Positions 25,811-48,585 of a stretch of DNA of 64,000 nucleotides are shown piece by piece. The stretch lies in assembly GCF_000027125.1 (NCBI RefSeq), contig NC_017626.1. The stretch is one strand, 5' to 3'. The stretch comes from Escherichia coli 042 (GTDB taxonomy: Bacteria > Pseudomonadota > Gammaproteobacteria > Enterobacterales > Enterobacteriaceae). Below the pieces are notes generated by a model. That model saw nothing but the letters and a program-made list of their open reading frames with translations, was not told the origin of the DNA and ran no database searches. A program made the position numbers and the translations under genes. Every line of letters begins with the position of its first letter. The first letter of the stretch is position 1.

Positions 25811-25828
25811 GGTTATTGTCATTGTTGC

Positions 25829-25874
25829 TTTTATAGCTATTAAGCTATAGTTTATCTATAGCATAAAAGCTATG
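25829..25874 (+). promoter_or_regulatory. Palindrome-rich putative operator/promoter of the toxin-antitoxin pair
   Basis: Repeated TATAGC/GCTATA and CTATAG half-sites (TTTTATAGCTATTAAGCTATAGTTTATCTATAGCATAAAAGCTAT) just upstream of the toxin gene. Confidence 0.45.
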
Positions 25875-25882
25875 AGGGACCG

Positions 25883-26227: not shown

Positions 26228-26236
26228 GGAACGATA

Positions 26237-26536: not shown

Positions 26537-26593
26537 TTTTGGGGTGCATTTTATGAACCGGATTAGATAAAACGGTATCTAATCCGGTAAACA

Positions 26594-27487: not shown

Positions 27488-27849
27488 AAAGCACAGTCTT
27501 ATACGTCCCTGAGAAGATGATTTTTCTGCGTGATAATTAATATTTTATGGTGATAAGATTATTCTTAATCACTATATAGCGTGGAAATGTAACGAAATGA
27601 CAGGACAGGTACAATAGCCAAATGTGTACTATTTGCAACGCAATGTAAATTTTGGCATCAGTACATTGAGAACAAAACGCGATAATTGATGACAATCTTA
27701 ACTATATCAAGCGTTTGATAAAGACATATTTTGATACCTGGCCATGTGGCAGATATTGCTAATAATCTTTTTATCTGAATTTAAACTCTGCTTTTTTTAG
27801 CTAAAAGTGGCATCGGATAATACGTGGCGAAAAAATTATAACGGCGATT

Positions 27850-27877
27850 TTAAGTTTGCTCCTGAGGTGTCGTTTTT
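27850..27877 (+). promoter_or_regulatory. Candidate sigma-28-type promoter upstream of lafA
   Basis: TTAAGTTT, 12-nt spacer, TCGTTTTT about 45 nt upstream of the lafA ATG; same layout as the lfgM candidate. Confidence 0.3.
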
Positions 27878-27921
27878 ACAGGGTATCGAAACGAAAACGA
27901 TTAATCCCAAGGAGCAGTATC

Positions 27922-28836
27922 ATGTTATCTATTAACACCAATAACGCCTCAATGGCCGCCGTTAATGCAATCAGCAAAAGCAGCTCTTCTCTGTCTACAT
28001 CTATGGAACGCCTGGCGACAGGTAACCGGATTAACTCTTCTGCCGATGACGCCGCAGGCAAACAAATTGCTAACCGTCTGACAGCACAGTCCAGCGGTAT
28101 GGGTGTTGCGCTGAGCAACATCAATGATGCCACCGCGATGCTGCAAACCGCTGACAGCATGTTCGACGAAATGTCTGACGTGCTGGGTCGTATGAAAGAC
28201 CTGTCAACTCAGGCAGCGAACGGCACCTACAGCGACGACGACCTGCAGGCGATGCAGGACGAATACGACGAACTGGGCCAGCAGATGTCTGACATGCTGC
28301 AAAACACCACTTACGGCGGCACCAACCTGTTCGGTGTTTCCGGTACCAGCAACACCGGTACTGACGGTCTGTTCCAGAGCGCGGTAACTTTCCAGGTGGG
28401 CGCGGAATCTTCCGACACCATGACCGTGAATATTTCAAGCCAGCTGAATACCCTGGTGACGGATCTTTCTGCAATCAGCAACTCCTTTAGTGCGGATCAG
28501 GCTGACACCACTGGCACCGCAGGCGTTTCTGGCGGTACTGAGCTGACTGCGTCTGGCTCGGCTAACCAGATGATCACCAGCATCTCTACCGCGATGGATG
28601 ACGTGTCTCAGATCCAGTCCAAGCTGGGTGCCTCTATCAACCGTCTGAACGACACTGCCAACAACCTGACCAGTATGCAAGACAACACCGAAGTCGCTAT
28701 CGGTAACATCATGGATACCGACTACGCGACGGAAGCGTCCAATATGACCAAACAGCAAGTGCTGATGCAGACTGGCATCACCATGCTGAAACAGTCCAAC
28801 AGCATGTCCAGCATGGTTTCCAGCCTGCTGCAGTAA
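27922..28836 (+). CDS. lafA: Lateral flagellin
   Basis: Flagellin N-terminus (MLSINTNNASMAAVNAISKSSSSLSTSMERLATGNRINSSADDAAG) and C-terminus (TKQQVLMQTGITMLKQSN); start at 27922 with AGGAG ribosome-binding site. Confidence 0.9.
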   Translation: MLSINTNNASMAAVNAISKSSSSLSTSMERLATGNRINSSADDAAGKQIANRLTAQSSGMGVALSNINDATAMLQTADSMFDEMSDVLGRMKDLSTQAANGTYSDDDLQAMQDEYDELGQQMSDMLQNTTYGGTNLFGVSGTSNTGTDGLFQSAVTFQVGAESSDTMTVNISSQLNTLVTDLSAISNSFSADQADTTGTAGVSGGTELTASGSANQMITSISTAMDDVSQIQSKLGASINRLNDTANNLTSMQDNTEVAIGNIMDTDYATEASNMTKQQVLMQTGITMLKQSNSMSSMVSSLLQ

Positions 28837-28837
28837 T

Positions 28838-28870
28838 GGCGGACTTGCCGATGCGGCGTAAACGCCTTAT
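28838..28870. repeat. REP unit
   Basis: GCCGATGCGGCGTAAACGCCTTATCCGGCC. Confidence 0.8.
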
Positions 28871-28880
28871 CCGGCCACGA

Positions 28881-28927
28881 ACAACACCGCCTGCGGGCGG
28901 TGTTGTGCTTTCAGCGGCAGGCTTTTT
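28881..28927 (+). terminator. Rho-independent terminator after lafA
   Basis: GC-rich hairpin (CAACACCGCC...GGCGGTGTTG inside GCCTGC...GCAGGC) followed by TTTTTT. Confidence 0.65.
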
Positions 28928-28992
28928 TCCGCCAGAACGGAAACGTCATTTCCGCCTGTTTTTCAATCTATTGATTATTCACATAAAAAATA

Positions 28993-29008
28993 TTGGCACG
29001 CCTTTTGC
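28993..29008 (+). promoter_or_regulatory. Sigma-54 (-24/-12) promoter upstream of lafB
   Basis: TGGCAC-GCCTT-TTGCC, matching TGGCAC-N5-TTGC, 33 bp upstream of the lafB ATG. Confidence 0.7.
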
Positions 29009-29040
29009 CATTAACCTGACATCGTTACCCGGAGTCATCA

Positions 29041-30357
29041 ATGATTAACCCAAGAACCATTGCGCAAGAAATTGCTTATGCGGATGTCGCCACCCAGGCG
29101 GCAAATTTGCAGGAGAAGCAGACCGAGCTGGACGCTGAAAGCAGCGGCCTGGACTCGCTCAGCTCGGCGTTAAGCGATTTCCAGAGCGCCGTTGACGCGC
29201 TGAACAGCGATACCGACGGCCCGGTGACTTTTGCCGCCACCAGCAATAATGACTCGGCGACCGTTTCCGCTAACTCGCAGGCACAGGCGGGAAGCTACTC
29301 GTTTTTCGTTGAGCAACTGGCGCAGGGGCAGCAAACCACGTTCAGTATGGGCGACGACGCCTTTTCCGCTACCGGTACTTTTGAACTGACGATGGGCGAC
29401 AGCACCATGGATATCGATCTGTCGGCGGCAGATCAGAACGGTGACGGCGACGGTTTTATCGACGCCAGCGAACTGGTGAACGCGATTAACGACTCCGATG
29501 ATAATCCAGGCGTTTCAGCGGCGTTGGTGAAAACCGACGGCACCACCACCATTATGCTCACCTCCGATAGCACCGGGGCGCAGAGCGCGTTTTCGGTGAG
29601 CGTAACGGGGCATGATGCCAGCAACGATAGCACCAGCGCGCCCGTTGCCACGGTTGTTTCCTCAGCCCAGGACGCGATTATTCATCTCGGTAGCGCCACG
29701 GGCCCGGCGATCACCAACAGCAGCAATACGTTTGATGATGTGATCCCCGGCGTCACCATGACTTTTACCGAAGTCAGCGATTCTGACAGCGACCTCACCA
29801 CTTTTAACATCAGCGAAGATTCCAGCTCCAGCCAGGAGAAAGTACAGACTTTTGTCGATGCCTATAACACCTTGATTGATACGGTTGATTCGCTAACCAC
29901 TCACGGTGATGACAGTACCAGCGCCGGGGTATTTGCAGGCGACGCCGGACTCAGTTCACTGGCGAACCAGCTCGATGACATCGCCCATGCCAGCTACAAC
30001 GGCGTGTCGATTGTTGACTATGGCATCACCCTCGATTCTCACGGCCACTTACAGATTGACTCCGACCAGTTCAACGACGAAATGGCGAAAAATCCTGACG
30101 GTCTGACCTCTATTTTCGTTGGCGACAACAGCATGGTAGCGCAGATGGACGACCTGATTAACACCTACACGGACTCCAGCAACGGCATCATCACCCTGCG
30201 CCAGCAGAACATTGACGATCAGATGAGCAAAATTCAGGACGAAGGCGATCAGCTTACTGATACCTATAACGCCAACTACGACCGTTATCTCGAGGAGTAC
30301 ACCAACACGCTGGTCGAGGTGTACACCATGAAAGCCAGCATGGCGGCATTCGCGTAA
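29041..30357 (+). CDS. lafB: FliD homolog (filament cap)
   Basis: 438-aa ORF with FliD-like termini, directly after the flagellin gene. Confidence 0.82.
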   Translation: MINPRTIAQEIAYADVATQAANLQEKQTELDAESSGLDSLSSALSDFQSAVDALNSDTDGPVTFAATSNNDSATVSANSQAQAGSYSFFVEQLAQGQQTTFSMGDDAFSATGTFELTMGDSTMDIDLSAADQNGDGDGFIDASELVNAINDSDDNPGVSAALVKTDGTTTIMLTSDSTGAQSAFSVSVTGHDASNDSTSAPVATVVSSAQDAIIHLGSATGPAITNSSNTFDDVIPGVTMTFTEVSDSDSDLTTFNISEDSSSSQEKVQTFVDAYNTLIDTVDSLTTHGDDSTSAGVFAGDAGLSSLANQLDDIAHASYNGVSIVDYGITLDSHGHLQIDSDQFNDEMAKNPDGLTSIFVGDNSMVAQMDDLINTYTDSSNGIITLRQQNIDDQMSKIQDEGDQLTDTYNANYDRYLEEYTNTLVEVYTMKASMAAFA

Positions 30358-30379
30358 CTCAGAAGGAATATCCCTAAAG

Positions 30380-30772
30380 ATGTACCAAGTACAGGACGGC
30401 TATTCGCAATATAAAGAGATCGATCTCGCGGCGCGTACCGCGGCGGCATCGCCTCTGGAACTGGTGCTGGTGCTGTTTTCTGGCCTGATGGACGAGCTGG
30501 AACGCGCCAAAAGCCATATTGAAGGGCGGCGTTTCGAGAAGAAAGCCCAGAGCATCAATAAATGCATCGACATTCTCAATGCGCTCACCAGTTCGCTGGA
30601 ATTTGAAACCGGCGGCGAGCTGGTGGTCAACCTTTCGCGCCTCTATGACCACTGCGTTTACCGATTGTATGAAGCCAGCGGCGAACTGTCGGCAGAGAAA
30701 ATCGATGAAGTGATGCTGATCTTAAGCAACCTGCGCGAAGGCTGGGAAGGGCTTTCGGGCAAGCTGGGTTAA
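30380..30772 (+). CDS. lafC: FliS homolog (flagellin chaperone)
   Basis: 130-aa ORF with FliS-like sequence (LVLVLFSGLMDELERAKSHIEG). Confidence 0.85.
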   Translation: MYQVQDGYSQYKEIDLAARTAAASPLELVLVLFSGLMDELERAKSHIEGRRFEKKAQSINKCIDILNALTSSLEFETGGELVVNLSRLYDHCVYRLYEASGELSAEKIDEVMLILSNLREGWEGLSGKLG

Positions 30773-30776
30773 GACG

Positions 30777-31088
30777 ATGGAAAAACAACGCAGGCAACTT
30801 TTCGTACTGGTCGAGGCGATGAATGAAGCCCTCGACAAGCAACGCTGGCGACGCCTTCCGGCCCTGCATCAGCAGGTGATGCGCCAGTTTCACGATTATG
30901 CGACGGCGGAAACCGATGCGACGCAGTTGTGTGCGGTGAAGGCGCAACTGTACGGCGCGTTTAATGCCCTGATTAAACGACGCGAGCAGCGCGCAGAAGT
31001 GTTGAAAGCGCGTATGGAGCAGCATCAACGGCATCAGGAAGGTGTGCTGGCCTACTCAATTGTTAATTTACTTTCGGAGAAGTCATGA
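30777..31088 (+). CDS. lafD: FliT-like chaperone
   Basis: 103-aa helical ORF after the fliS homolog (fliD-fliS-fliT order). Confidence 0.6.
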   Translation: MEKQRRQLFVLVEAMNEALDKQRWRRLPALHQQVMRQFHDYATAETDATQLCAVKAQLYGAFNALIKRREQRAEVLKARMEQHQRHQEGVLAYSIVNLLSEKS

Positions 31089-32146
31089 ATCCGGCATTGC
31101 TTGCCACGCTCGGAACGCTTGCGGAAACGGCGTCGCTGAAAGCGGATATTTTACCGCCGATGAGCGGTAAAAACGCGCCCGCGTTTACCCTGCCGAAAAT
31201 GGCGGTCGCGGCGGTGGCGGAGCGCGTTCATAGCGCTAAAACCAGTCAGCAACAGGCGACGCGCCCGCAGGAGAACGATCCGGTGGCGATGCAGGCGCTA
31301 ATGGCGCTGTTACTTCCGCAACCTGCCGCGACGCATCAGGACACGCCGCAGCCGCGAAACGTCGCAACATCGCCGGTTATTCAGCAATTGACGAAAGCGG
31401 TGGTGCAAAACGCGCCGCAACGCCCGACACAACAGCAGGAACTCACGACATTGCCGCCACAGTTGCAGGAACTGATCGGTCAGTTGCCGCAGGCGAAACC
31501 CGAACAGCAGGCCAGACTGGCAATTTACGCCAGTGAAGATTTACATGCCATTGCGCCGACGCAGCCGCGCGTCTCAACACAGCCCGCTCGCCCGAAACCT
31601 GAACTAACCCGTGTGACCGCGCGCCCACAGGTCGAGCGTAAAACGGAAAAAGTGCCGGACAGCGAACCGGTTATTGCGCGTGCGGTGTTGCAGGTTAAGA
31701 CGCCGGAGCTGGTCAGCCAGCATCAGGAGATTGTCGCCAAACCAGCCACGCTTTCAATGGACGAACTGGGCGAAAAACTGACGACGCTGTTGAAAGATCA
31801 GATCCACTTTCAGCTCAACAAACAACAGCAGATCTCCACCATCCGTCTCGATCCACCGTCGCTTGGCAAGCTCGAGATCGTCGTACAACTCGATAACGGC
31901 AAACTGATGGTGCACATCGGCGCGAACCAAAGTGAAGTTTGCCGCGCGTTACAACAGTTTAGCGACGATCTCCGCCAGCATCTGACGGCGCAAAATTTTA
32001 TGGAGGTGAACGTACAGGTTTCCTCCGAAGGGCAGTCGCAGCAACAACAACAGTCGGGCCATCAGCAGGAAGAGGTGAGTGCCGCCTTACAGCTTGATGA
32101 TGCGCCTCAATTTCAACAGAACGAATCCGTTTTGATCAAAGTGTAA
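31085..32146 (+). CDS. lafE: FliK homolog (hook-length control)
   Basis: Pro/Gln-rich linker and C-terminal FliK-type domain (LDPPSLGKLEIVVQLDNGKLMVHIGANQSEV). Confidence 0.78.
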   Translation: MNPALLATLGTLAETASLKADILPPMSGKNAPAFTLPKMAVAAVAERVHSAKTSQQQATRPQENDPVAMQALMALLLPQPAATHQDTPQPRNVATSPVIQQLTKAVVQNAPQRPTQQQELTTLPPQLQELIGQLPQAKPEQQARLAIYASEDLHAIAPTQPRVSTQPARPKPELTRVTARPQVERKTEKVPDSEPVIARAVLQVKTPELVSQHQEIVAKPATLSMDELGEKLTTLLKDQIHFQLNKQQQISTIRLDPPSLGKLEIVVQLDNGKLMVHIGANQSEVCRALQQFSDDLRQHLTAQNFMEVNVQVSSEGQSQQQQQSGHQQEEVSAALQLDDAPQFQQNESVLIKV

Positions 32147-32153
32147 AGGCAAT

Positions 32154-32621
32154 ATGAAGAAAATCGTGGTGGCGGGCGTGGTCAGCGCCGTTCTGGCGTT
32201 GGTGGTGGGGGCCGGAGCTGGATGGGGTGTCTGGCATCATTATGCCGGAAAAGGAAAACCGACTGCCGCCGCGCAGACGGAAACGGTGGAAACCCTGGAT
32301 GAAAGCAAAAGCGTGTTTGTGACGTTGCCGGAAACCATTGTCACTTTGCATGACAACAACGGCGCGGACCATTATTTGTCGGCGGAATTAGTGATGGTGG
32401 TTGCCAGTGACAAAGAAGCGGAAAAAATAAAACATCAGGAGCCGCTGTATCAAAGTATTGCAGTTGAATGCCTGACGGAAATGAAATTTGAAGATTTGCG
32501 CGGCATGAAAATATCTGCCATCCGCAAACTGATTTCGGATGCGTTAAAGAAAGATCTTCAACGTCGCAAAATGAGCGCACCGTATAAGGATTTGCTGGTG
32601 AAAAAAGTGGTCTTCCAGTAA
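32154..32621 (+). CDS. lafF: FliL homolog (basal-body-associated membrane protein)
   Basis: 155-aa ORF with one N-terminal TM helix and FliL-like periplasmic region. Confidence 0.75.
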   Translation: MKKIVVAGVVSAVLALVVGAGAGWGVWHHYAGKGKPTAAAQTETVETLDESKSVFVTLPETIVTLHDNNGADHYLSAELVMVVASDKEAEKIKHQEPLYQSIAVECLTEMKFEDLRGMKISAIRKLISDALKKDLQRRKMSAPYKDLLVKKVVFQ

Positions 32622-32640
32622 TCACCAGGCGGATATAAAC

Positions 32641-33357
32641 ATGCTACAGGATGTATTCGAGTCAGAAGAATTTGCTGCCGCGCCGGTATTAACCCCGCAG
32701 CAGGAGAGCCACTACTTGCAGGCCTATTTACCACTGGTGCGTAAAGTTGTGCGGCAACTTGCCCCGCAGTGTAATTGCATTATTGATCGTCAGGATATGG
32801 AACAAACGGCGTTAATGGGGCTGCTTAATGCCATTCGCCGCTACGGACTGCCGGACGAAGGTTTTGCGGGCTATGCCGTGCACCGTATTCGCGGCGCGAT
32901 CCTGGATGAGCTGCGCGCTCTCGACTGGCGACCGCGCCAGCTGCGACAGAAATATCATCAGATGAAAGATCTGATTCGTGAGACGCGCAAAAAACTGGGG
33001 CACGAACCGGAGTGGTCAGAACTGGCCGTGGAAGGGATTTCGCATGAAGATTATCTCGAATATCAGCAACTGGAAGGGGCGGAAACGCTCGCCAGCCTGG
33101 ACGAACTGCTGAACGGTGAAGGGCCCGGCATTCCACTTGCTGGCAGGGAACTGGAAGATCAGTTTGTCACCCAGCAAATGCTGCAACACGCGCTTTCACT
33201 ATTAAGCGAAAAAGAGCAACTGATCCTCTCCATGTATTACCAGCATGAGATGAATCTCAAAGAGATTGCGCTGGTATTAGGGCTAACCGAGGCCCGAATT
33301 TGTCAACTGAATAAACAGATCGCGCAGAAAATTCGTGATTTTGTCTATCCGAATTAA
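32641..33357 (+). CDS. lafS: Sigma-28 (FliA-family) sigma factor
   Basis: 238-aa ORF with sigma-70 region 2 and region 4 HTH (LKEIALVLGLTEARICQLNKQI). Confidence 0.85.
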   Translation: MLQDVFESEEFAAAPVLTPQQESHYLQAYLPLVRKVVRQLAPQCNCIIDRQDMEQTALMGLLNAIRRYGLPDEGFAGYAVHRIRGAILDELRALDWRPRQLRQKYHQMKDLIRETRKKLGHEPEWSELAVEGISHEDYLEYQQLEGAETLASLDELLNGEGPGIPLAGRELEDQFVTQQMLQHALSLLSEKEQLILSMYYQHEMNLKEIALVLGLTEARICQLNKQIAQKIRDFVYPN

Positions 33358-33369
33358 AGTGAAGAAATC

Positions 33370-34233
33370 ATGCAAAAAATATTAGGTTTACTGGTGGTGC
33401 TCGGCTGCGTATTTGGCGGTTATTTTGAAGCGGGCGGGCAACTAGTGGCTATCTGGCAACCGGCGGAGATGATCATTATTTGGGGTGCCGGTTTCGGGGC
33501 GATGATTATTGGTAACCCGAAACATGTGCTGAAAGAGATTGCCCATCAAATTAAAGGCGTGATCAGTAAAAAACAGCTCGGGCCGGAGTTTCAGCGCCAG
33601 CTATTAATGTGTCTGTATGAGTTGCTCGAAATGGTGCAAAACGGTGGTCTGCGCATGTTGGATCAGCATATTGAGCAGCCGGAAGAGAGCACCATTTTCC
33701 AGAAATACCCGCTGGTGTTAACCCAGAAGCGGCTGGTGACCTTTATTGCCGATAACTTTCGCCTGATGGCGATGGGCAAGATTGACGCCCATGAACTGGA
33801 AGGCATTCTCGATCAGGAACTGGACACCGCGGAAGAGTCCCTGTTAACGCCGTCGCGCTCGCTGCAACGTACTGCCGAAGCGATGCCGGGATTTGGTATT
33901 TGCGCGGCGGTGCTGGGCATCATCATCACCATGCAGTCGATTGATGGATCTATCGCCCTGATTGGCCTGAAAGTGGCGGCGGCGCTGGTGGGGACGTTTT
34001 TAGGCGTCTTTATCTGCTACTGCCTGATGGACCCGCTCGCCAACGCCATGGAACAACAGGCGCGGGCGGAACATTCTTTGCTGGAGTGCGTGCGTACTGT
34101 GCTGGTGGCGCAGGCAGGCGGCAAACCGACGCTGCTGGCGGTGGACGCCGGGCGTAAGCTGCTGCATCTGGCGTCCAAACCGACCTTCGCCAACCTCGAT
34201 GCGTGGGTGAATGCGATGCTGGAGCAAGAATAA
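33370..34233 (+). CDS. lafT: MotA homolog (stator)
   Basis: 287-aa four-TM protein with MotA/TolQ/ExbB-type C-terminal helices. Confidence 0.85.
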   Translation: MQKILGLLVVLGCVFGGYFEAGGQLVAIWQPAEMIIIWGAGFGAMIIGNPKHVLKEIAHQIKGVISKKQLGPEFQRQLLMCLYELLEMVQNGGLRMLDQHIEQPEESTIFQKYPLVLTQKRLVTFIADNFRLMAMGKIDAHELEGILDQELDTAEESLLTPSRSLQRTAEAMPGFGICAAVLGIIITMQSIDGSIALIGLKVAAALVGTFLGVFICYCLMDPLANAMEQQARAEHSLLECVRTVLVAQAGGKPTLLAVDAGRKLLHLASKPTFANLDAWVNAMLEQE

Positions 34234-34235
34234 GC

Positions 34236-35159
34236 ATGAGAAAGACGGGCAACCGCCGCGAGCGTGGGGCAAAAACCACCATCGTCCGGCGGCAGATCAA
34301 AAAGAATCATGCCGGGCATCATGGCGGGGCGTGGAAGGTGGCGTTCGCCGATTTTACTTTGGCAATGATGGCGCTGTTTATGACGCTGTGGATTGTCAAC
34401 AGCGTCAGTAAATCCGAGCGTGAAAGCATTATCGCCGCGCTGCACGGGCAGTCGATTTTCAATGGCGGCGGGTTGTCGCCGTTAAATAAAATCAGCCCGT
34501 CTCATCCGCCAAAACCTGCCACCGTGGCGGCGCCGGAAGAGACGGAGAAAAAAGCGCGTGACGTCAATGAGAAAACGGCGCTGCTGAAGAAGAAATCCGC
34601 TACTGAGCTTGGCGAGCTGGCGACCAGTATCAACACCATTGCCCGTGATGCACATATGGAAGCGAATCTGGAGATGGAGATTGTTCCCCAGGGACTGCGC
34701 GTGCTGATTAAAGATGACCAGAACCGCAATATGTTTGAACGCGGCAGCGCACAGATTATGCCGTTCTTTAAAACTTTGCTGGTGGAGCTCGCGCCAGTGT
34801 TCGACTCGCTCGATAACAAAATTATTATTACCGGGCATACCGATGCGATGGCCTACAAAAACAATATCTACAACAACTGGAACCTTTCGGGCGATCGCGC
34901 GCTTTCGGCTCGTCGGGTGCTGGAAGAGGCCGGAATGCCGGAAGATAAAGTGATGCAGGTGAGCGCGATGGCGGACCAGATGCTGCTGGACGCGAAAAAT
35001 CCGCAAAGCGCGGGCAACCGACGCATTGAGATTATGGTGCTGACCAAAAGTGCGTCCGATACGCTGTATCAATACTTTGGTCAGCATGGGGATAAAGTGG
35101 TGCAGCCGCTGGTGCAAAAGCTGGATAAGCAGCAGGTGCATTCGCAGCGAACGCGCTAG
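34236..35159 (+). CDS. lafU: MotB homolog (stator, OmpA-like peptidoglycan-binding domain)
   Basis: N-terminal TM helix (FADFTLAMMALFMTLWIV) and OmpA-like C-terminus (NWNLSGDRALSARRVL); start at ATG 34236. Confidence 0.85.
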   Translation: MRKTGNRRERGAKTTIVRRQIKKNHAGHHGGAWKVAFADFTLAMMALFMTLWIVNSVSKSERESIIAALHGQSIFNGGGLSPLNKISPSHPPKPATVAAPEETEKKARDVNEKTALLKKKSATELGELATSINTIARDAHMEANLEMEIVPQGLRVLIKDDQNRNMFERGSAQIMPFFKTLLVELAPVFDSLDNKIIITGHTDAMAYKNNIYNNWNLSGDRALSARRVLEEAGMPEDKVMQVSAMADQMLLDAKNPQSAGNRRIEIMVLTKSASDTLYQYFGQHGDKVVQPLVQKLDKQQVHSQRTR

Positions 35160-35197
35160 ATGCTGAATCTTTACGCATTTCTCAAACCCTGAAATCA

Positions 35198-35213
35198 CTG
35201 TATACTTTACCAG
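35198..35213 (+). promoter_or_regulatory. LexA (SOS) box of dinB
   Basis: CTGTATACTTTACCAG matches CTGT-N8-ACAG, 17 bp upstream of the dinB ATG. Confidence 0.85.
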
Positions 35214-35229
35214 TGTTGAGAGGTGAGCA

Positions 35230-36285
35230 ATGCGTAAAATCATTCATGTGGATATGGACTGCTTTTTCGCAGCGGTGGAGATGCGCGACAATCCCGCCCT
35301 GCGCGATATCCCTATTGCTATTGGCGGCAGCCGCGAACGTCGGGGGGTGATCAGCACCGCCAATTATCCCGCGCGTAAATTTGGCGTACGTAGCGCTATG
35401 CCGACAGGGATGGCGCTCAAATTTTGCCCACATCTCACGCTGCTTCCAGGGCGCTTTGACGCCTACAAAGAAGCCTCAAATCATATCCGCGAAATTTTCT
35501 CGCGCTATACCTCGCGCATTGAACCGTTATCACTGGATGAAGCCTATCTCGACGTCACCGATAGTGTGCATTGCCACGGTTCTGCGACCCTCATCGCCCA
35601 GGAAATCCGCCAGACGATTTTCAACGAGCTGCAACTGACGGCATCTGCGGGCGTTGCGCCGGTAAAGTTTCTCGCCAAAATTGCTTCCGACATGAATAAA
35701 CCCAACGGTCAGTTTGTGATTACTCCGGCAGAAGTTCCGGCATTTCTGCAAACCTTACCGCTGGCAAAAATTCCTGGCGTCGGCAAAGTCTCGGCGGCAA
35801 AACTGGAAGCGATGGGGCTGCGGACCTGCGGTGATGTGCAAAAGTGTGATCTGGTGACTCTGCTCAAACGTTTTGGCAAATTTGGCCGCATTTTGTGGGA
35901 GCGTAGTCAGGGGATTGACGAGCGCGACGTTAACAGCGAACGGTTGCGAAAATCCGTCGGCGTGGAACGCACGATGGCGGAAGATATTCATCACTGGTCT
36001 GAATGTGAAGCGATTATCGAGCGGCTGTACCCGGAACTTGAACGCCGTCTGGCAAAGGTAAAACCTGATTTACTGATTGCCCGTCAGGGAGTGAAATTAA
36101 AGTTCGACGATTTCCAGCAAACCACTCAGGAGCACGTCTGGCCACGGCTGAATAAAGCTGATCTAATCGCCACCGCGCGTAAAACCTGGGATGAACGCCG
36201 CGGCGGGCGCGGTGTGCGACTGGTGGGGCTGCATGTGACGTTGCTTGACCCTCAAATGGAAAGACAACTGGTGCTGGGATTATGA
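35230..36285 (+). CDS. dinB: DNA polymerase IV
   Basis: 351-aa Y-family polymerase ([33 protein letters not shown]). Confidence 0.95.
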
Positions 36286-36336
36286 TGTATACTATTATGT
36301 CTATTCTGGTGTGCATTATTATGAGGGGATCACTGT

Positions 36337-36630
36337 ATGCATCGAATTCTTGCGGAAAAATCGGTCAATATCACTGAGTTACGTAAAAACCCAGCTAAAT
36401 ACTTTATTGATCAACCAGTTGCGGTTCTTTCTAATAATCGCCCCGCAGGATATCTCTTAAGTGCCAGCGCATTCGAAGCGTTAATGGACATGCTTGCTGA
36501 ACAAGAGGAGAAAAAGCCTATAAAGGCGCGCTTCCGTCCAAGTGCTGCAAGATTAGAGGAAATTACACGCCGAGCTGAAAAATATCTTAATGATATGACG
36601 GATGATGATTTCAATGACTTTAAGGAATAA
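36337..36630 (+). CDS. yafN: YafN antitoxin
   Basis: 97-aa Phd/YefM-like antitoxin located between dinB and yafO. Confidence 0.85.
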   Translation: MHRILAEKSVNITELRKNPAKYFIDQPVAVLSNNRPAGYLLSASAFEALMDMLAEQEEKKPIKARFRPSAARLEEITRRAEKYLNDMTDDDFNDFKE

Positions 36631-36632
36631 GG

Positions 36633-37031
36633 ATGCGGGTATTCAAAACAAAACTCATTCGCCTGCAACTTACAGCAGAGGAACTTGAAGCGTTAACGGC
36701 GGATTTTATTTCCTATAAGCGTGACGGTGTTTTGCCAGATATATTTGGTCGCGATGCACTCTACGACGACTCGTTTACCTGGCCATTAATCAAATTTGAG
36801 CGAGTTGCTCATATTCATCTGGCAAATTAGAATAATCCATTTCCGCCACAGTTGCGCCAATTCAGCAGAACGAATGACGAAGCGCATTTGGTATATTGTC
36901 AGGGTGCGTTTGATGAGCAAGCATGGTTGCTCATTGCCATTCTGAAACCTGAACCTCATAAACTGGCTCGAGATAACAACCAAATGCATAAAATTGGGAA
37001 AATGGCAGAAGCGTTTCGCATGCGTTTTTGA
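36633..37031 (+). pseudogene. yafO: YafO toxin gene interrupted by an in-frame TAG
   Basis: ORF stops at TAG 36828-36830 after 65 codons; same frame stays open for 66 more codons (NNPFPPQLRQFSRTNDEAHLVYCQGAF...MRF) to TGA 37029-37031, 10 bp before yafP. Confidence 0.75.
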
Positions 37032-37040
37032 ATTTATATT

Positions 37041-37493
37041 ATGAATAACATACATATAAGAAACTATCAGCCTGGCGATTTTCAGCAACTATGCGCTATT
37101 TTCCTTCGAGCGGTTACGATGACTGCCAGTCAGCACTATTCTCCACAGCAAATTGCCGCCTGGGCGCAGATTGACGAATCTCGCTGGAAAGATAAACTCG
37201 CGAAATCACAAGTGCGGGTTGCAGTCATTAATGCACAACCGGTTGGTTTTATTTCCCGCATTGAGCATTATATCGATATGTTATTTGTTGACCCTGAATA
37301 CACCCGCCGTGGGGTTGCCAGCGCTTTGTTAAAACCTTTGATTAAGTCTGAATCCGAACTTACGGTGGACGCCAGCATAACCGCAAAGCCCTTTTTTGAA
37401 CGTTATGGTTTTCAGACAGTTAAGCAGCAGTGCGTTGAATGCCGGGGAGCGTGGTTTACTAATTTTTATATGCGATATAAACCGCAACATTAA
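37041..37493 (+). CDS. yafP: GNAT-family acetyltransferase
   Basis: 150-aa ORF with GNAT-like sequence, in dinB-yafN-yafO-yafP order. Confidence 0.88.
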   Translation: MNNIHIRNYQPGDFQQLCAIFLRAVTMTASQHYSPQQIAAWAQIDESRWKDKLAKSQVRVAVINAQPVGFISRIEHYIDMLFVDPEYTRRGVASALLKPLIKSESELTVDASITAKPFFERYGFQTVKQQCVECRGAWFTNFYMRYKPQH

Positions 37494-37569
37494 ATCCAGC
37501 TTGCAATGAAAATAACGCCCGCCTAGTATGTGCGCGTTTTCTTATTCCACAAACTGCAAGGAGGTAAAT

Positions 37570-37617
37570 CATGACAAATCCTTTATCAATGACTCTTTGC
37601 AGACCTTTCCAGGATTA
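37570..37617 (+). CDS. 15-codon small ORF with strong ribosome-binding site (possible leader peptide)
   Basis: AAGGAGGT 5 nt upstream of ATG; encodes MTNPLSMTLCRPFQD; 55 bp upstream of the rtcB-like gene. Confidence 0.3.
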
Positions 37618-37671
37618 ATTCTTTTTTTCTTGCCCTGGATTCGTCTGCCATTTCCTGATTTTTATTCATAA

Positions 37672-38823
37672 ATGGAATGGTTTATGGGCAAATATATTCG
37701 TCCCTTATCCGATGCGGTATTTACCATCGCATCTGATGACCTGTGGATCGAGAGTTTAGCGATCCAACAATTACACACCACGGCAAATTTACCCAACATG
37801 CAGCGCGTAGTAGGGATGCCAGATTTACATCCCGGACGCGGCTACCCGATTGGCGCAGCGTTCTTCTCCGCAGGCCGTTTTTACCCGGCACTGGTCGGCA
37901 ATGATATCGGCTGCGGCATGGCGCTATGGCAAACAGATATTCTCGCTCGCAAATACAACGCCGATAAGTTTGAAAAGCGATTATCAGCTTTGGATGACGT
38001 TGCTGAAGAAAGCTGGCTGGAGGAAAACCTGCCGTCAGCATTTGCACAGCATCCGTGGCGCAGCTCGCTTGGCTCTATCGGTGGCGGAAACCACTTCGCA
38101 GAACTGCAACAAGTTGATGAAATCATCGACGCTGAACTGTTTGCACTGGCAGGTCTGGATGCGCAGCATCTGCAACTGCTGGTTCATAGCGGCTCGAGGG
38201 GGTTGGGGCAGTCTATTTTACAGCGGCATATTGCCTCGTTTTCGCATCATGGTTTGCCTGAAGGCAGTGACGACGCGCTACGGTATATTGCGGAACATGA
38301 CGATGTGCTAGCGTTTGCGCGTATTAATCGCCAGATGATTGCTTTGCGCATAATGCAACAAGTTAAGGCCACCGGAAGTCCGGTTCTGGATGTGGCGCAT
38401 AACTTTGTTAGCGCGTGCCAAATCGGCGATCAACAGGGTTGGTTGCATCGTAAAGGTGCCACGCCGGATGACAACGGTCTGGTGATTATTCCCGGTTCAC
38501 GCGGTGATTACTCCTGGCTTGTACAGCCTGTTGCGAACGAAAAAACGCTCCACTCGCTGGCGCATGGGGCAGGGCGTAAATGGGGGCGCACCGAGTGTAA
38601 AGGGCGTCTGGCAGCGAAATGCACGGCGACGCAACTCTCGCGTACTGAACTTGGCAGTCGGGTAATTTGTCGCGATAAACAACTCATCTTTGAAGAAGCG
38701 CCACAAGCCTATAAATCGGCTGAAAGCGTGGTGCAATGTCTGGTGCAAGCCGGTTTAATTATTCCTGTCGCGCGGCTGCGTCCGGTGCTAACGCTCAAAA
38801 ACAGTGGAGGGAAAAAAGGATGA
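37672..38823 (+). CDS. RtcB-family RNA ligase paralog, full length
   Basis: 383-aa ORF with RtcB-like segments ([25 protein letters not shown]); stop overlaps the prfH start (ATGA). Confidence 0.8.
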
Positions 38824-39434
38824 TCTTGCTACAACTCTCCTCAGCGCAGGGGCCGGAAGAATGTTGCCTCGCAGTGAAAAAGGCGCTGGACAGGTTGATT
38901 AAAGAAGCTACCCGACAAGACGTCGCGATAACGGTGCTGGAAACAGAAACGGGTCGCTACTCTGACACGTTGCGTTCAGCGCTGATTTCTCTGGATGGCG
39001 ATAACGCATGGGCATTAAGCGAAAGTTGGTGCGGCACTATCCAGTGGATTTGTCCGAGTCCGTATCGGCCTCATCATGGGCGCAAAAACTGGTTTCTGGG
39101 CATTGGGCGTTTTACTGCTGATGAGCAGGAACAATCGGATGCAATCCGTTATGAGACGCTGCGTTCGTCGGGGCCGGGCGGTCAACATGTCAATAAAACC
39201 GACTCGGCGGTACGCGCCACGCATCTGGCATCCGGGATTAGCGTGAAGGTTCAGTCAGAGCGCAGCCAACATGCCAACAAACGGCTGGCGCGATTGCTGA
39301 TTGCCTGGAAGCTGGAGCAACAGCAACAGGAAAATAGCGCGGCGCTGAAATCGCAGCGGCGAATGTTCCATCACCAGATTGAACGTGGCAACCCGCGACG
39401 AACGTTTACAGGGATGGCTTTTGTCGCTGTGTAA
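38820..39434 (+). CDS. prfH: Peptide chain release factor homolog H
   Basis: 204-aa ORF with GGQ motif ([16 protein letters not shown]); start [16 protein letters not shown]. Confidence 0.85.
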
Positions 39435-39495
39435 TTGAGGAATGTCTCCCGCCGTTTTCTATATGAAAGCGGCGGGAAAAACGAAAGGAATAGTC

Positions 39496-40005
39496 ATGTT
39501 TATCGGTCATCTTCCGGCTGGTTATTTAATAACTTGTACTTTAATGAAACGCTTGCCACTGATTGCTCGTCATGCGCGCTGGGCGATGGTTATTGGCTTA
39601 CTTGGGGCCGTTGCGCCCGATTTTGATCTTTTTTGGTGCTATCTGGTTGATAACGGGCAACGACATCATCATCTTTACCCGTCTCATTGGCCATTATTAT
39701 GGTTTGCTCTGCTGGCGGCGACATTAGTCTGGGCAGGAATTGCGAAGAATAAACTTCCGGCGTGGCTGGGCGTGGTGTTTTGCCTGAATAGTATCGCGCA
39801 TTTATTACTCGATACGCTGGTCGGTGATATCTGGTGGCTGATGCCTTTCGTTAACCAACCGTTTGCATTCTTTCATATTACGGCGGTACATCATCCGTGG
39901 TGGCTCAATTTTTTATTACACTGGTCGTTTTTACTGGAACTGGCATTAGTGGTTGCCGCCATTGCCATGTGGTGCAGGCGTAATGCCAAAATGGTAAATG
40001 CATGA
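39496..40005 (+). CDS. Inner-membrane protein, possibly membrane-bound metal-dependent hydrolase family
   Basis: 170-aa multi-TM ORF with His-rich motifs (HARWAM, QRHHHLYPSHW, HHPWW); family assignment uncertain. Confidence 0.5.
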   Translation: MFIGHLPAGYLITCTLMKRLPLIARHARWAMVIGLLGAVAPDFDLFWCYLVDNGQRHHHLYPSHWPLLWFALLAATLVWAGIAKNKLPAWLGVVFCLNSIAHLLLDTLVGDIWWLMPFVNQPFAFFHITAVHHPWWLNFLLHWSFLLELALVVAAIAMWCRRNAKMVNA

Positions 40006-40311
40006 AAAAATTATTCTGACTTTAAGCGGCGTAACATGTTTCCTGGGGAAATTCTCCCGTGGTTAAGTATGCTCTCCTGACTTTGCCCCAGGCTCTGAAC
40101 ATATAAAATTTCTGCTTTTCACCCTTAAGTTCTTTCACGGATTCCAGCGCAAAACCTTCTTTGGTGATCAGAAATTCTCCCCATGAAATATGGTCGCAGC
40201 TATATAAATATGCGACCTTTTCATGAGTTTCATAATGTTTTGTTATTTCGATATAGATAGCCATTGGCTTCAAACAGTAGTCCACGCCCGCAGGCGTGGA
40301 CATTATTGTAA

Positions 40312-41769
40312 TTACTTCGCCGGAATTTCTTTCAGCAGTTCAGTCAGTAGTGTCCAGTAATGACCTACGCTTTCGATGTGAACTTGCTCATCCGGAGAGT
40401 GTGGACCGGTGATGGTTGGCCCGATAGAAACCATGTCCATTTCCGGATACGGTTTTTTAAACAGACCACATTCCAGGCCCGCGTGGATAATCTGGATGTT
40501 CGGCGTCTTGTTGAACAGACGCTGATAGGTTTCACGTACCAGATGCATCACCGGAGAATTAGCGTCTGGCTGCCAGCCAGGATATGCGCCTTTCGCTTCG
40601 GTTTTCGCGCCTGCCAGTTTACCCAGCGAATCCAGCATGCTCACCACGTAGTCTTTACCGCTGTCGATCAGAGAACGGATCAGGCAGTGAATTTCTACGT
40701 TATTGTCAGTCATGGTCACCACACCGACGTTCAGGGAGGTTTCGACCACACCTTTTGCCACGTCGGAGTTGCGGATCACACCGTTCGGGGTAGCGTTCAG
40801 CAGACGAATAAAGGTATCGCGAGATTTCGCAATCAGGGCAGCTTTATCGTTCGCAACAGAGTCCAGCAGCAATGCCAGATTTTTCTCTTTCTCTGCCAGC
40901 TCGTTTTTCAGGATCTCCTGATAGGTATTCACCAGAGATTTCAGTGCGTCGACTTTATCAGCTGCGACAGCAATCGTCGCAAAGGCTTCACGCGGGATGG
41001 CGTTACGCAGTGTGCCACCGTTGAAATCGATAAGGCGCAGGTCCAGCTCTTCCGCATGACCCGCCAGGAAGCGCACCAGCAGTTTGTTGGCATTACCCAG
41101 GCCAACGTGGATTTCACCGCCGGAGTGACCGCCTTTTAGACCTTTTAAGGTTAACTTGAAGGTTTCAAAACCAGCTGGAACCGCTTCACGATCTAAATGC
41201 AGGTTGGAGGTGAAGTCGATACCCCCCGCGCAACCCATGTAGATTTCACCTTCTTCTTCGGAGTCGGTGTTAATCAGAATATCAGCCTGCAACCAGTTGC
41301 TCTGTAAGCCGAACGCACCGTCCATACCGGCTTCTTCGGTCATGGTCAGCAGCACTTCCAGCGGGCCGTGAACCACGTTTTCGTCAGCCAGAACCGCCAG
41401 TGCAGAGGCCATACCAATACCGTTATCCGCACCCAGCGTGGTGCCGCGCGCTTTAACCCATTCGCCATCAATATAAGGCTGGATAGGATCTTTAGTGAAG
41501 TCATGCACGGTGTCGTTATTTTTCTGCGGCACCATATCGAGGTGGGCCTGCAAGACGACTGGTTTACGATTTTCCATACCTGCGGTAGCAGGTTTACGAA
41601 TCAGGATATTACCTACCTGATCGCGTTCGACATGGAAACCTTTCTCTTTTGCCCAACCAACAATGTATTCAGCGAGTTGCTCTTCATGATAGGACGGGTG
41701 AGGAATAGAACAGATTTTGGCAAAAATATCCCACAGCGGCTGTGGAGATAATTGAGACAGTTCAGACAC
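40312..41769 (-). CDS. pepD: Cytosol non-specific dipeptidase (Xaa-His dipeptidase)
   Basis: 485-aa M20-family ORF (MSELSQLSPQPLWDIFAKICSIPHPSYHEEQL). Confidence 0.95.
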   Translation of the reverse strand: MSELSQLSPQPLWDIFAKICSIPHPSYHEEQLAEYIVGWAKEKGFHVERDQVGNILIRKPATAGMENRKPVVLQAHLDMVPQKNNDTVHDFTKDPIQPYIDGEWVKARGTTLGADNGIGMASALAVLADENVVHGPLEVLLTMTEEAGMDGAFGLQSNWLQADILINTDSEEEGEIYMGCAGGIDFTSNLHLDREAVPAGFETFKLTLKGLKGGHSGGEIHVGLGNANKLLVRFLAGHAEELDLRLIDFNGGTLRNAIPREAFATIAVAADKVDALKSLVNTYQEILKNELAEKEKNLALLLDSVANDKAALIAKSRDTFIRLLNATPNGVIRNSDVAKGVVETSLNVGVVTMTDNNVEIHCLIRSLIDSGKDYVVSMLDSLGKLAGAKTEAKGAYPGWQPDANSPVMHLVRETYQRLFNKTPNIQIIHAGLECGLFKKPYPEMDMVSIGPTITGPHSPDEQVHIESVGHYWTLLTELLKEIPAK

Positions 41770-42029
41770 GTTAAGTCTCCTTGTCGATCACCCGCAAAAC
41801 AGTATTGCAGGTCACAGGGTTAGCAGAAAATGTTGTCAACACAAGACAGGCTTGCGAGATATGTTTGAGAATACCACTTTATCCCGCGTCAGGGAGAGGC
41901 AGTGCGTAAAAAGACGCGGACTCATGTGAAATACTGGTTTTTAGTGCGCCAGATCTCTATAATCTCGCGCAACCTATTTTCCCCTCGAACACATTTTAAG
42001 CCGTAGATAAACAGGCTGGGACACTTCAC

Positions 42030-42488
42030 ATGAGCGAAAAATACATCGTCACCTGGGACATGTTGCAGATCCATGCACGTAAACTCGCAAGCCGACTGAT
42101 GCCTTCTGAACAATGGAAAGGCATTATTGCCGTAAGCCGTGGCGGTCTGGTACCGGGTGCGTTACTGGCGCGTGAACTGGGTATTCGTCATGTCGATACC
42201 GTTTGTATTTCCAGCTACGATCACGACAACCAGCGCGAGCTTAAAGTGCTGAAACGTGCAGAAGGCGATGGCGAAGGCTTCATCGTTATTGATGACCTGG
42301 TGGATACCGGTGGTACTGCGGTTGCGATTCGTGAAATGTATCCAAAAGCGCACTTTGTCACCATCTTCGCAAAACCGGCCGGTCGCCCGCTGGTTGATGA
42401 TTATGTTGTTGATATCCCGCAAGATACCTGGATCGAACAGCCGTGGGATATGGGCGTCGTATTCGTCCCGCCAATCTCCGGTCGCTAA
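42030..42488 (+). CDS. gpt: Xanthine-guanine phosphoribosyltransferase
   Basis: 152-aa ORF with PRPP-binding motif ([12 protein letters not shown]). Confidence 0.95.
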
Positions 42489-42494
42489 TCTTTT

Positions 42495-42528
42495 CAACGC
42501 CTGGCACTGCCGGGCGTTGTTCTTTTTA
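42495..42528 (+). terminator. Rho-independent terminator after gpt
   Basis: Hairpin AACGCC...GGCGTT followed by GTTCTTTTT. Confidence 0.6.
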
Positions 42529-42579
42529 ACTTCAGGCAGGTTACAATAGTTTCCAGTAAGTATTCTGGAGGCTGCATCC

Positions 42580-43824
42580 ATGACACAGGCAAACCTGAGC
42601 GAAACCCTGTTCAAACCCCGCTTTAAACATCCTGAAACCTCGACGCTAGTCCGCCGCTTTAATCACGGCGCACAACCGCCTGTGCAGTCGGCCCTTGATG
42701 GTAAAACCATCCCTCACTGGTATCGCATGATTAACCGTCTGATGTGGATCTGGCGCGGCATTGACCCACGTGAAATCCTCGACGTCCAGGCACGTATTGT
42801 GATGAGCGATGCCGAACGTACCGACGATGATTTATACGATACGGTGATTGGCTACCGTGGTGGCAACTGGATTTATGAGTGGGCCACCCAGGCGATGGTG
42901 TGGCAACAAAAAGCCTGTGCAGAAGAAGATCCGCAACTCAGTGGTCGTCACTGGCTGCATGCGGCTACGTTGTACAACATTGCCGCCTATCCTCATCTGA
43001 AAGGAGATGACCTGGCCGAGCAAGCGCAGGCTTTGTCAAACCGCGCCTATGAAGAGGCCGCTCAGCGTCTGCCGGGCACCATGCGGCAGATGGAGTTTAC
43101 CGTACCCGGCGGTGCGCCCATCACCGGCTTTTTGCATATGCCGAAAGGCGATGGCCCGTTCCCGACAGTATTAATGTGTGGTGGTCTGGATGCGATGCAG
43201 ACGGACTATTACAGCCTGTATGAACGTTATTTTGCGCCGCGCGGCATTGCGATGCTGACTATTGATATGCCGTCGGTGGGCTTTTCTTCAAAATGGAAGC
43301 TCACCCAGGACTCCAGCCTGTTGCATCAGCACGTCTTAAAGGCGCTGCCTAACGTACCGTGGGTAGATCACACTCGCGTCGCGGCCTTTGGTTTCCGTTT
43401 CGGCGCTAACGTTGCCGTGCGTCTGGCATACCTTGAATCGCCGCGTCTGAAAGCGGTTGCCTGTCTTGGTCCGGTAGTTCATACCCTGTTGAGTGATTTT
43501 AAGTGCCAGCAACAGGTGCCGGAAATGTATCTTGACGTTCTGGCGAGCCGTTTGGGGATGCATGATGCTTCCGACGAAGCGTTGCGCGTGGAGCTGAATC
43601 GCTATTCATTAAAAGTGCAAGGATTGCTGGGACGTCGCTGCCCAACGCCAATGTTATCAGGCTACTGGAAGAACGATCCGTTCAGCCCGGAAGAGGACTC
43701 ACGCTTAATCACCTCATCATCTGCTGACGGTAAATTGTTAGAGATCCCATTTAACCCGGTGTATCGGAATTTTGACAAAGGTCTTCAGGAAATCACCGAC
43801 TGGATCGAAAAACGATTGTGTTAA
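42580..43824 (+). CDS. frsA: Esterase FrsA
   Basis: 414-aa alpha/beta-hydrolase ORF in gpt-frsA-crl order. Confidence 0.9.
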
Positions 43825-44283
<459 letters not shown>

Positions 44284-44291
44284 GTGAAATG

Positions 44292-44314
44292 TGCCGGATG
44301 CATCACATCCGGCA
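44292..44314. terminator. Bidirectional terminator hairpin between convergent crl and phoE
   Basis: GCCGGATG-CATCA-CATCCGGC stem-loop in a 38-bp convergent intergenic space. Confidence 0.55.
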
Positions 44315-44321
44315 ATATCCA

Positions 44322-45377
44322 TTAAAACTGATAGGTCATGCCAACCGCGACAATATCATCATTATTGATGTTCAGCTTATTATCGCTATCTAGTTGGTTT
44401 ATTTTATAATCAACAAATGCCGACATATTTTTGTTGAAATAATACGTAGCACCAACATCGATATAATTGACCAGATCTTCATCACCGATGCCTTCAATAT
44501 CTTTCCCTTTCGATAAGACATAACCCAGCGACGGACGCAGACCAAAGTCAAACTGGTATTGGGCGACCGCTTCAAAGTTCTGTGTCTTATTGGCAAAGCC
44601 GCCAGTTATTGGCGTCATTTTGCGTGTTTCAGAATAGAAAGTTGCCAGATAAATATTATTGGCATCGTATTTCAGACCTGTTGCCCATGCTTCTGCACGC
44701 TTGCCTGTGCCACGGCTTTGCAGATTCTGCTCGTTGGTGCGATCTGAGTTGGTATAGGCCCCACTAATGGCGAAATCGCTGCCGCCAAAGTCATATGTCA
44801 ATGACGTGCCGAAGCCATCGCCGTTTTGCTTTTTAACGTCGCGGTTTTCGTTTTTCCCTTGATATTGCAGGGTTAAGTTCAGACCATCGATAACGCCGAA
44901 GAAGTCAGTGTTACGGTAAGTGGCCAGACCGCTGGCGCGTTTGGTCATAAAGTTGTCGGTCTGCGCCGAGGAGTCGCCACCAAATTCCGGGAACATATCG
45001 GTCCAGGCTTCCACGTCATACAGCGCGCCCAGGTTACGACCATAATCGAAAGAACCCAAATCTTTATATTTCAACCCGGCAAAAGCGAGACGTGTTTTTT
45101 GCTGTGCAGTATCACTCTCTGCTTTATTACCGGCAAACTCTGCTTCCCAGCGACCATAACCGGTCAATTGATCGTTAATTTGTGTTTCGCCTTTAAAACC
45201 AAAACGGATATAACTCTGGTCGCCATCTTTACTGTCATTATCACTCATATAATGCATGGCTTTAACTTTGCCATAGACATCCAGTTTATTACCGTCTTTG
45301 TTATATATTTCTGCGGCCTGTACGGATGCAGATGCCACAATGCCCATCACCACTAATGCCAGAGTGCTCTTTTTCAT
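44322..45377 (-). CDS. phoE: Outer membrane phosphoporin PhoE
   Basis: Signal peptide [21 protein letters not shown], porin beta-barrel, C-terminal Phe; start set at the third codon of the track ORF. Confidence 0.92.
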
Positions 45378-45664
45378 TTTCATTCCTGATTTTAATTAAC
45401 GCGCGAATATTCAGCGGGAGAGTCCCGTTGAAAACAGGAAAGTTTTTAACCTGAGATTGTTAAAGATATATTACAGATTAATAATATTCTTAAAATGTGG
45501 TAATTTATTAAATCTGTAATAAAAGCGTAAACAACTGCCGCTACGCTTGCTGATCCCGCGCAACAAAACGCCATGCTTTGCTCGCAGAAGGTTGGCAACC
45601 GACGACAGTCCTGCTAAAACGTTCGTTTGATATCATTTTTCCTAAAATTGAATGGCAGAGAATC

Positions 45665-46768
45665 ATGAGTGACAGCCAGACGCTGGTGGTAAAACTCGGC
45701 ACCAGTGTGCTAACAGGCGGATCGCGCCGCCTGAACCGTGCCCATATTGTTGAACTCGTTCGCCAGTGCGCGCAGTTACATGCCGCCGGGCATCGGATTG
45801 TTATTGTGACGTCGGGCGCGATTGCCGCCGGACGTGAGCACCTGGGTTACCCAGAACTACCAGCGACTATCGCCTCGAAACAATTGCTGGCGGCGGTAGG
45901 GCAGAGTCGACTGATTCAACTGTGGGAACAGCTGTTTTCGATTTATGGCATTCACGTCGGGCAAATGCTGCTGACCCGTGCTGATATGGAAGACCGTGAA
46001 CGCTTCCTGAACGCCCGCGACACCCTGCGTGCGTTGCTCGATAACAATATCGTTCCGGTAATCAATGAGAACGATGCTGTCGCTACTGCAGAGATTAAGG
46101 TCGGCGATAACGATAACCTTTCTGCGCTGGCGGCGATTCTGGCGGGTGCCGATAAACTGTTGCTGCTGACCGATCAAAAAGGTTTGTACACCGCTGACCC
46201 GCGCAGCAATCCGCAGGCAGAACTGATTAAAGATGTTTACGGCATTGATGACGCACTGCGCGCGATTGCCGGTGACAGTGTTTCAGGCCTCGGAACTGGC
46301 GGCATGAGTACCAAATTGCAGGCCGCGGACGTGGCTTGCCGTGCGGGTATCGACACCATTATTGCCGCGGGCAGCAAGCCGGGCGTTATTGGTGATGTGA
46401 TGGAAGGCATTTCCGTGGGTACGCTGTTCCATGCCCAGGCGACTCCGCTTGAAAACCGTAAACGCTGGATTTTCGGTGCGCCGCCGGCGGGTGAAATCAC
46501 GGTAGATGAAGGGGCAACCGCCGCCATTCTTGAACGCGGCAGCTCCCTGTTGCCGAAAGGTATTAAAAGCGTGACTGGCAATTTCTCGCGTGGTGAAGTC
46601 ATCCGCATTTGCAACCTCGAAGGTCGCGATATCGCCCACGGCGTCAGTCGTTACAACAGCGATGCATTACGCCGTATTGCCGGACACCACTCGCAAGAAA
46701 TTGATGCAATACTGGGATATGAATATGGCCCGGTTGCCGTTCACCGTGATGACATGATTACCCGTTAA
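45665..46768 (+). CDS. proB: Glutamate 5-kinase
   Basis: Start [19 protein letters not shown]; amino-acid kinase domain plus C-terminal PUA domain. Confidence 0.95.
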
Positions 46769-46779
46769 GGAGCTGGCCG

Positions 46780-48503: not shown

Positions 48504-48585
48504 TGAGTTTTTCTCTGTGCCGCCAGAGGCGTTCCCCGCTTTTTCAGCACCGCAATAATGTCGGCGGAATGCCAGTCCTGTTGCA

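Follow-up and report, generated by a model that had tools for sequence, protein, structure and literature searches.

Does the yafNO toxin-antitoxin module in the dinB operon of Escherichia coli 042 still encode a toxin? In K-12, YafN-YafO is a type II system in which YafO is a ribosome-dependent mRNA interferase; mRNA cleavage and growth arrest upon expression are known for the K-12 YafO alone (PMC2814082, PMC7781912). In the 64,000-nt stretch of DNA analyzed here (hereafter, the window), the operon lies on the plus strand and begins with dinB (DNA polymerase IV; 35230-36285), a 351-aa ORF that carries the dinB annotation in the collinear record of 118UI. The genes that follow are yafN (36337-36630), a 97-aa ORF for an antitoxin of the Phd/YefM type (Pfam PF02604, 31.5 bits), yafO (36633-37031), and yafP (37041-37493), an intact GNAT acetyltransferase gene by ORF and Pfam match. 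The last Flag-2 lateral-flagellar genes (motA, lafU) lie upstream of the operon, and rtcB and prfH, both intact, lie downstream. A preliminary description of the locus had reported that an amber codon ends the yafO ORF after 65 codons, that the same frame then continues for 66 sense codons and stops 10 bp before yafP, as expected for a full-length toxin of ~132 aa, and that yafN is intact. The ORF layout and the translation bear this out. The yafO ATG at 36633, 2 nt after the end of yafN, is followed by 65 codons, by TAG at 36828-36830 as codon 66, by 66 sense codons (residues 67-132), and by TGA at 37029-37031, with 9 nt between this stop and the yafP ATG at 37041. The frame thus spans 132 codons, broken at codon 66 in an allele identical to that of 118UI. 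The yafN ORF is uninterrupted and encodes the same protein as the yafN genes of 118UI and FRIK1989, the latter a strain with an intact YafO.

A run of 66 sense codons has a chance of ~0.04 of arising at random. The frame past the TAG reflects homology rather than luck because its translation matches the Pfam YafO_toxin profile at positions 47-101 with E = 4.8e-22 (78.4 bits). With the stop reverted to a sense codon, the whole product scores 135.1 bits against PF13957 over profile positions 2-101, well within the family as defined by its curated cut-off of 25 bits; the 65-aa fragment scores 36.5 bits over positions 2-36 of 101. The length of 65 aa could in principle be the conserved functional form, an outcome that the preliminary description had named as grounds for abandoning its reading. 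Close YafO homologues in other Enterobacterales are 131-134 aa long, an exhaustive profile search recovered 274 family members at E ≤ 0.001, and 111 of the 144 new representatives are 119-151 aa, the shorter entries matching part of the profile only. Homologues from Klebsiella, Pectobacteriaceae, Pantoea, and Pseudocitrobacter, together with the 119-151 aa of most representatives, rule out 65 aa as the normal length. The window yafO, stopped at codon 66, is not an uninterrupted single-chain ORF of ~120-150 aa. The locus combines a yafO pseudogene with a yafN left as an orphan, and it belongs to the module by sequence, context, and fold: an intact Phd/YefM-type antitoxin gene lies directly upstream in the dinB operon, and the toxin gene is not intact.

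A PDB sequence search found no solved YafO structure, its lone match being a spurious designed repeat protein (E = 0.04). An AlphaFold (AF2) model of GAG-reverted YafO was built on a 112-sequence alignment drawn from the exhaustive profile search, and it reached a pLDDT of 97.7 and a pTM of 0.91, where a 19-sequence alignment had given a pLDDT of 49. The model shows an antiparallel β-sheet on N-terminal helices, like the solved RelE/HigB toxins, which is the fold of the RelE/ParE superfamily. Sequence identity between YafO and the mRNA interferases of RelE/HigB fold (HigB2 5mje, HigB1 7nbu, RelE, YafQ, YoeB) is only 3-15%, and the YafO model differs from them in having an extra hairpin of helices at the N terminus and a long helix at the C terminus. 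The truncated ORF (36633-36830), as placed by Pfam and the model, holds β1 (residues 2-5), helices at 7-12 and 15-31 (α1-α2), β2 (38-43), a helix at 51-55 (α3), and β3 (59-63). The untranslated remnant past the stop (36831-37031) holds β4 (84-90), β5 (97-104), and two C-terminal helices (108-112 and 115-131). Residue 66 itself falls just past β3, within the long connection from β3 to β4. Two residues, F25 and Y88, are invariant in the 112-sequence alignment, and Y28, F38, G39, D41, H60, H62, L86, H109, A125, and F128 are conserved in at least 90% of the sequences. Along with β1-β3, the fragment retains the HxH motif (H60, H62); Y88 and H109 are lost together with β4, β5, and the two C-terminal helices. 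Judged from the model, such a 65-residue fragment would be unable to fold into the toxin or to form a ribosome-dependent mRNA interferase.

The remnant contains an ORF of its own, 59 codons from a TTG at 36852 to 37031, that appears as a second 'YafO' gene in the output of some gene callers. In one assembly with the TAG allele, the gene caller splits yafO into a 65-aa and a 59-aa 'YafO' gene, both of which match PF13957. In a toxin-antitoxin survey (mBio 2023; PMC10790755), 'YafO (76P) and YafO (77P)' are given as novel antitoxins and as markers confined to ST69. Because gene callers split the TAG allele in this way, these ST69-exclusive clusters are most likely the two halves of the TAG pseudogene called as separate ORFs. 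One could instead take the calls and the two ST69-exclusive YafO-domain 'partner' clusters of the survey (PMC10790755) at face value and suppose a split toxin, in which the N-terminal fragment of 65 aa associates again with a C-terminal one of 59 aa that has its own start, the two chains together being active or regulatory and each half having its PF13957 match. We consider this very improbable. The gene calls are mechanical ORF predictions, and the TTG at 36852 has no Shine-Dalgarno motif before it (ccatttccgccacag); the yafO start is preceded by the Shine-Dalgarno-like AAGGA, which lies within the last part of yafN. The toxin is a single chain in most family representatives (111 of 144 at 119-151 aa), and in the model the break would part β3 from β4 of one sheet. 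The remaining ORFs at yafO, two antisense ones of 100 and 85 aa and one in the +2 frame, have no Pfam match. No Rfam family was found at the locus, where the one match scored 21.5 bits against a cut-off of 60, and a promoter and terminator scan over 35000-37800 gave no excess over shuffled sequence.

For a reading as a nonsense mutation, codon 66 should be a sense codon in other E. coli, a comparison that the preliminary description had proposed. Alleles were counted with a 61-mer centered on the TAG, which was searched in complete-genome E. coli records. Among the 2,842 records that carry the yafO region, codon 66 is GTG (Val) in 1,793 (63%; e.g., NRG857C and FRIK1989), GAG (Glu) in 862 (30%; e.g., K-12), and TAG in 141 (5%; 118UI and the window allele), the last at 100% identity over the 61-mer; a further 46 records have another codon or differ elsewhere in the 61-mer. 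GAG and GTG together account for 2,655 records with a sense codon. GAG is also the codon in the outgroup E. whittamii; in Pseudocitrobacter the aligned residue is Ala, and across the family the position is variable. Apart from codon 66, the yafO alleles differ at only 3-7 sites. The K-12 locus has the same four-gene operon, spacing, and Pfam families as the window, and its yafO differs at 5 of 399 bases; at codon 66 it reads GAG in place of TAG, and the window toxin is cut to 65 of 132 residues.

The direction of the change can be read from a still closer relative. An exact GAG revertant of the window yafO, at 100%, is absent from complete RefSeq genomes, where nothing comes closer than the TAG alleles, at 99.7%. 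An exact-protein look-up located the GAG version in a metagenome-assembled E. coli contig (ERZ28629368 scaffold_115). This contig differs from the window at only five sites over 36581-40031, and within yafO the sole difference is at 36828, G versus T. Because of this single difference, the lesion is assigned to one G-to-T transversion, GAG to TAG, on an otherwise intact allele. By this comparison, the window yafO has undergone no further change since the TAG mutation. The preliminary description had called the mutation recent. The absence of a second lesion and the single base that separates the allele from a natural intact GAG allele agree with that word; in the sense of being new to the isolate it does not hold, given the fixation of the allele in a widespread clade that we describe below. 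A different in-frame stop, at codon 119 (…NNQMQ*IGKM…), is present independently in Escherichia strain SCPM-O-B-8794, which belongs to a separate lineage, on a GTG-66 allele.

A single-base difference from intact alleles is also what a sequencing or assembly error would look like, and an error at 36828, with a real yafO that is intact, was the second ground on which the preliminary description had said it could fail. The same base recurs in the 141 complete-genome records, which were assembled independently. At least 1,000 contigs and 11,286 assembly-index blocks, from many sources, encode exactly this 65-aa product, and the TAG is linked to one haplotype among the complete-genome matches. An error is ruled out by the recurrence in complete genomes and index blocks, and we give it next to no weight. 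The stop is thus real in the organism, it lies where orthologues have a sense codon, and homology continues past it, as in a nonsense pseudogene.

The carriers include 'O15:H18 strain ST69', TAG-carrying reference genomes best match ST69 isolates (PMC7952442), and the carrier EcPF15 is ST394 by MLST (PMC7427188). Far from being private to the window strain, the TAG allele has become fixed across a widespread clade of phylogroup D that comprises ST69, ST394, and their relatives. Public annotation already flags it as a pseudogene: each TAG record that we inspected (118UI, EC1, NMBU-W13E19, 51489) carries the RefSeq/PGAP note 'internal stop' for yafO.

We think it highly probable that yafO is here a nonsense pseudogene, of single origin and inherited with its clade, caught at an early stage of yafNO loss. 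The course of events would be as follows. A G-to-T change at the first base of codon 66 converted GAG (Glu) to TAG on an otherwise intact yafO allele, and ribosomes from the well-placed yafO start would now release a 65-residue fragment. YafN is left as an orphan antitoxin, and two TAG carriers have already lost yafN to IS insertions. The allele would have arisen once and been inherited across the phylogroup-D clade (ST69, ST394, and relatives), with a fixation that was probably neutral or mildly beneficial. The window strain shares it within a 4.8-kb block of near identity, by common descent or by homologous recombination.

In the carrier EC1 an IS1 lies inside yafN after codon 73, and in chromosome OZ039993.1 an IS5-like element lies in yafN at about 36456-36461 (window numbering). 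Of the best-matching TAG records listed, just two, from other carriers than these, have an IS1 in yafP. Losing an antitoxin should be detrimental to a cell whose toxin still works, and the two yafN insertions, which are independent of each other, fit a dead toxin for this reason. They suggest that the antitoxin is no longer needed in the TAG background. An IS in yafN may also silence yafO transcription and hence is no proof that the allele is harmless. From the lost structural elements, the lost conserved residues, and these natural yafN knock-outs, we infer that YafO toxicity is lost.

One may ask whether the toxin is weakened and not dead. If UAG is occasionally read through, by a near-cognate tRNA or by a natural amber suppressor encoded elsewhere in the genome, a trickle of full-length YafO would result, YafN would still be needed, and the module would keep working at a lower dose; both the 66 post-stop codons free of further lesions and the intact yafN of the window and most carriers are what this would predict. 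On the other side, an allele one base from intact needs no selection to explain the absence of decay, an IS-disrupted yafN is tolerated in two carriers, and the only tRNA gene within the window is Thr-CGT, so that no suppressor is encoded there. We judge a leaky toxin quite unlikely as an account of the locus. As for the open downstream frame and the intact yafN in nearly all carriers, taken on their own, low-level read-through and a short time since the mutation fit equally well.

The stop may also reach beyond yafO. The 25 nt before the yafP ATG contain no Shine-Dalgarno-like motif (tcgcatgcgtttttgaatttatatt; 37015-37043), and yafP translation may depend on ribosomes that arrive from yafO; going by the sequence, the premature stop could be polar on yafP. 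The stop might have been selected, either for removing an SOS-induced growth arrest or for lowering YafP through lost translational coupling or Rho-dependent polarity. It ends translation 200 nt before yafP, which has no Shine-Dalgarno of its own, and the ATGA overlap in the dinB-yafP fusion of other strains (PMC3105422) suggests that yafP translation depends on upstream genes. yafO is co-transcribed with dinB from a LexA-controlled promoter (PMC7781912), yafNO has been lost repeatedly, and ST69, where the allele is located, is a successful lineage. Selection need not be invoked for fixation in a clonal lineage, however, and yafP is intact in nearly all carriers and is not clearly being discarded. 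We regard a selected knock-out as unlikely, and the more specific proposal for extra-intestinal pathogenic E. coli of ST69 and ST394, that the amber allele is adaptive because it removes an SOS-co-induced toxin and permits faster recovery from DNA-damaging antibiotics, perhaps with less YafP, as somewhat more doubtful still. If true, it would parallel the repeated yafNO deletion in other successful lineages.

The flanks of the allele bear on how the window strain came by it. The window and 118UI (Eco118UI_RS26610, 'internal stop') share all 399 yafO bases including the TAG, the YafN protein, rtcB, prfH, and a ydjM-like gene. They differ upstream of 35682, where the window has another haplotype (2-4% divergence) that takes in lafU/motA and parts of Flag-2, and at the private yafP site 37265. 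Along the window, the two sequences are nearly identical over 1-4500, diverge by 3-6% over about 5000-19000, return to near identity over 19000-30000, diverge by 3-4% over 30000-35682, are nearly identical over 35683-40458 with the single difference at 37265, and diverge by about 1% over 40459-48000. The TAG sits inside the 4.8-kb near-identity block 35683-40458. The SNP map places the haplotype breakpoint with respect to ST69-type strains inside dinB, at about 35682/35683, and across yafN-yafO-yafP the sole difference from the ST69-type haplotype is position 37265 (yafP codon 75), a synonymous GAG in the window where all eight compared strains have GAA. This mosaic indicates that homologous recombination has acted repeatedly across the Flag-2/dinB region. 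Because the window is a mosaic with respect to 118UI, the TAG allele is present in at least two genetic backgrounds. The window strain could share the block either by common descent, with later imports around it, or by import of the block itself.

The loss of yafO has ample company in E. coli. Of 5,426 complete genomes, 2,590 lack the gene, and in these yafP directly follows dinB. Gutierrez et al. described yafNO as recurrently deleted, with dinB and yafP fused by an ATGA overlap in about half of the natural isolates, and found the clean deletion in CFT073, in all B1 strains, and in many B2 and D strains (PMC3105422). The outcome in the window would be the same, a genome without functional YafO, for a module that is dispensable and often lost. 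The route differs, as the window has a point nonsense mutation, keeps the antitoxin and all of the DNA, and has a yafP that does not overlap dinB. We read the window allele as an early stage of the yafNO loss that about half of E. coli has completed by clean deletion. Toxin pseudogenes with a kept antitoxin have been reported elsewhere, for example parE-1 in CFT073 and orphan higA in K-12, HS, NRG857c, and CFT073 (PMC7232551). These cases resemble yafO here in that the toxin goes before the antitoxin, which is kept; they involve other toxin-antitoxin families and other lesions.

The yafO TAG allele is ordinary gene decay, and the finding matters little beyond bookkeeping. Within that scope, it provides a clean and inexpensive one-SNP marker for a clade of phylogroup D to which ST69 and ST394 belong, and it shows a point-mutation route to yafNO loss where other lineages used deletion. 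TAG strains would be natural yafO nulls in which yafN is kept, which is relevant to work on SOS-linked toxins, persistence, and YafP in ST69-type strains.

Several other features of the window were recorded. The genes rtcB (383 aa) and prfH (204 aa), at 37672-39434, are intact in the window and in ST69-type strains; only remnants of them are found in K-12, XJ6-3, F1140, and F5505-C1, and FRIK1989 combines a complete prfH with a truncated rtcB. Directly 3' of tRNA-Thr(CGT) (48148-48223), the window contains about 6.4 kb (48241-54607) that are absent at the same site in 118UI. This segment holds a gene for a reverse transcriptase-nitrilase fusion of 1,068 aa (49403-52612, minus strand; PADLOC RT_UG5-nitrilase, DRT class, 1,033 bits) and an AbiEi/AbiEii pair (52907-53710 and 53631-54617), and it resembles a small islet for anti-phage defence at thrW. 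Finally, the Flag-2 cluster contains a toxin-antitoxin-like pair at 25883-26536, in which a Gp49/HigB-like toxin gene (114 aa, PF05973) is followed by an HTH_3 antitoxin gene (99 aa); in the 118UI annotation the first is a toxin of the RelE/ParE family and the second an HTH protein.
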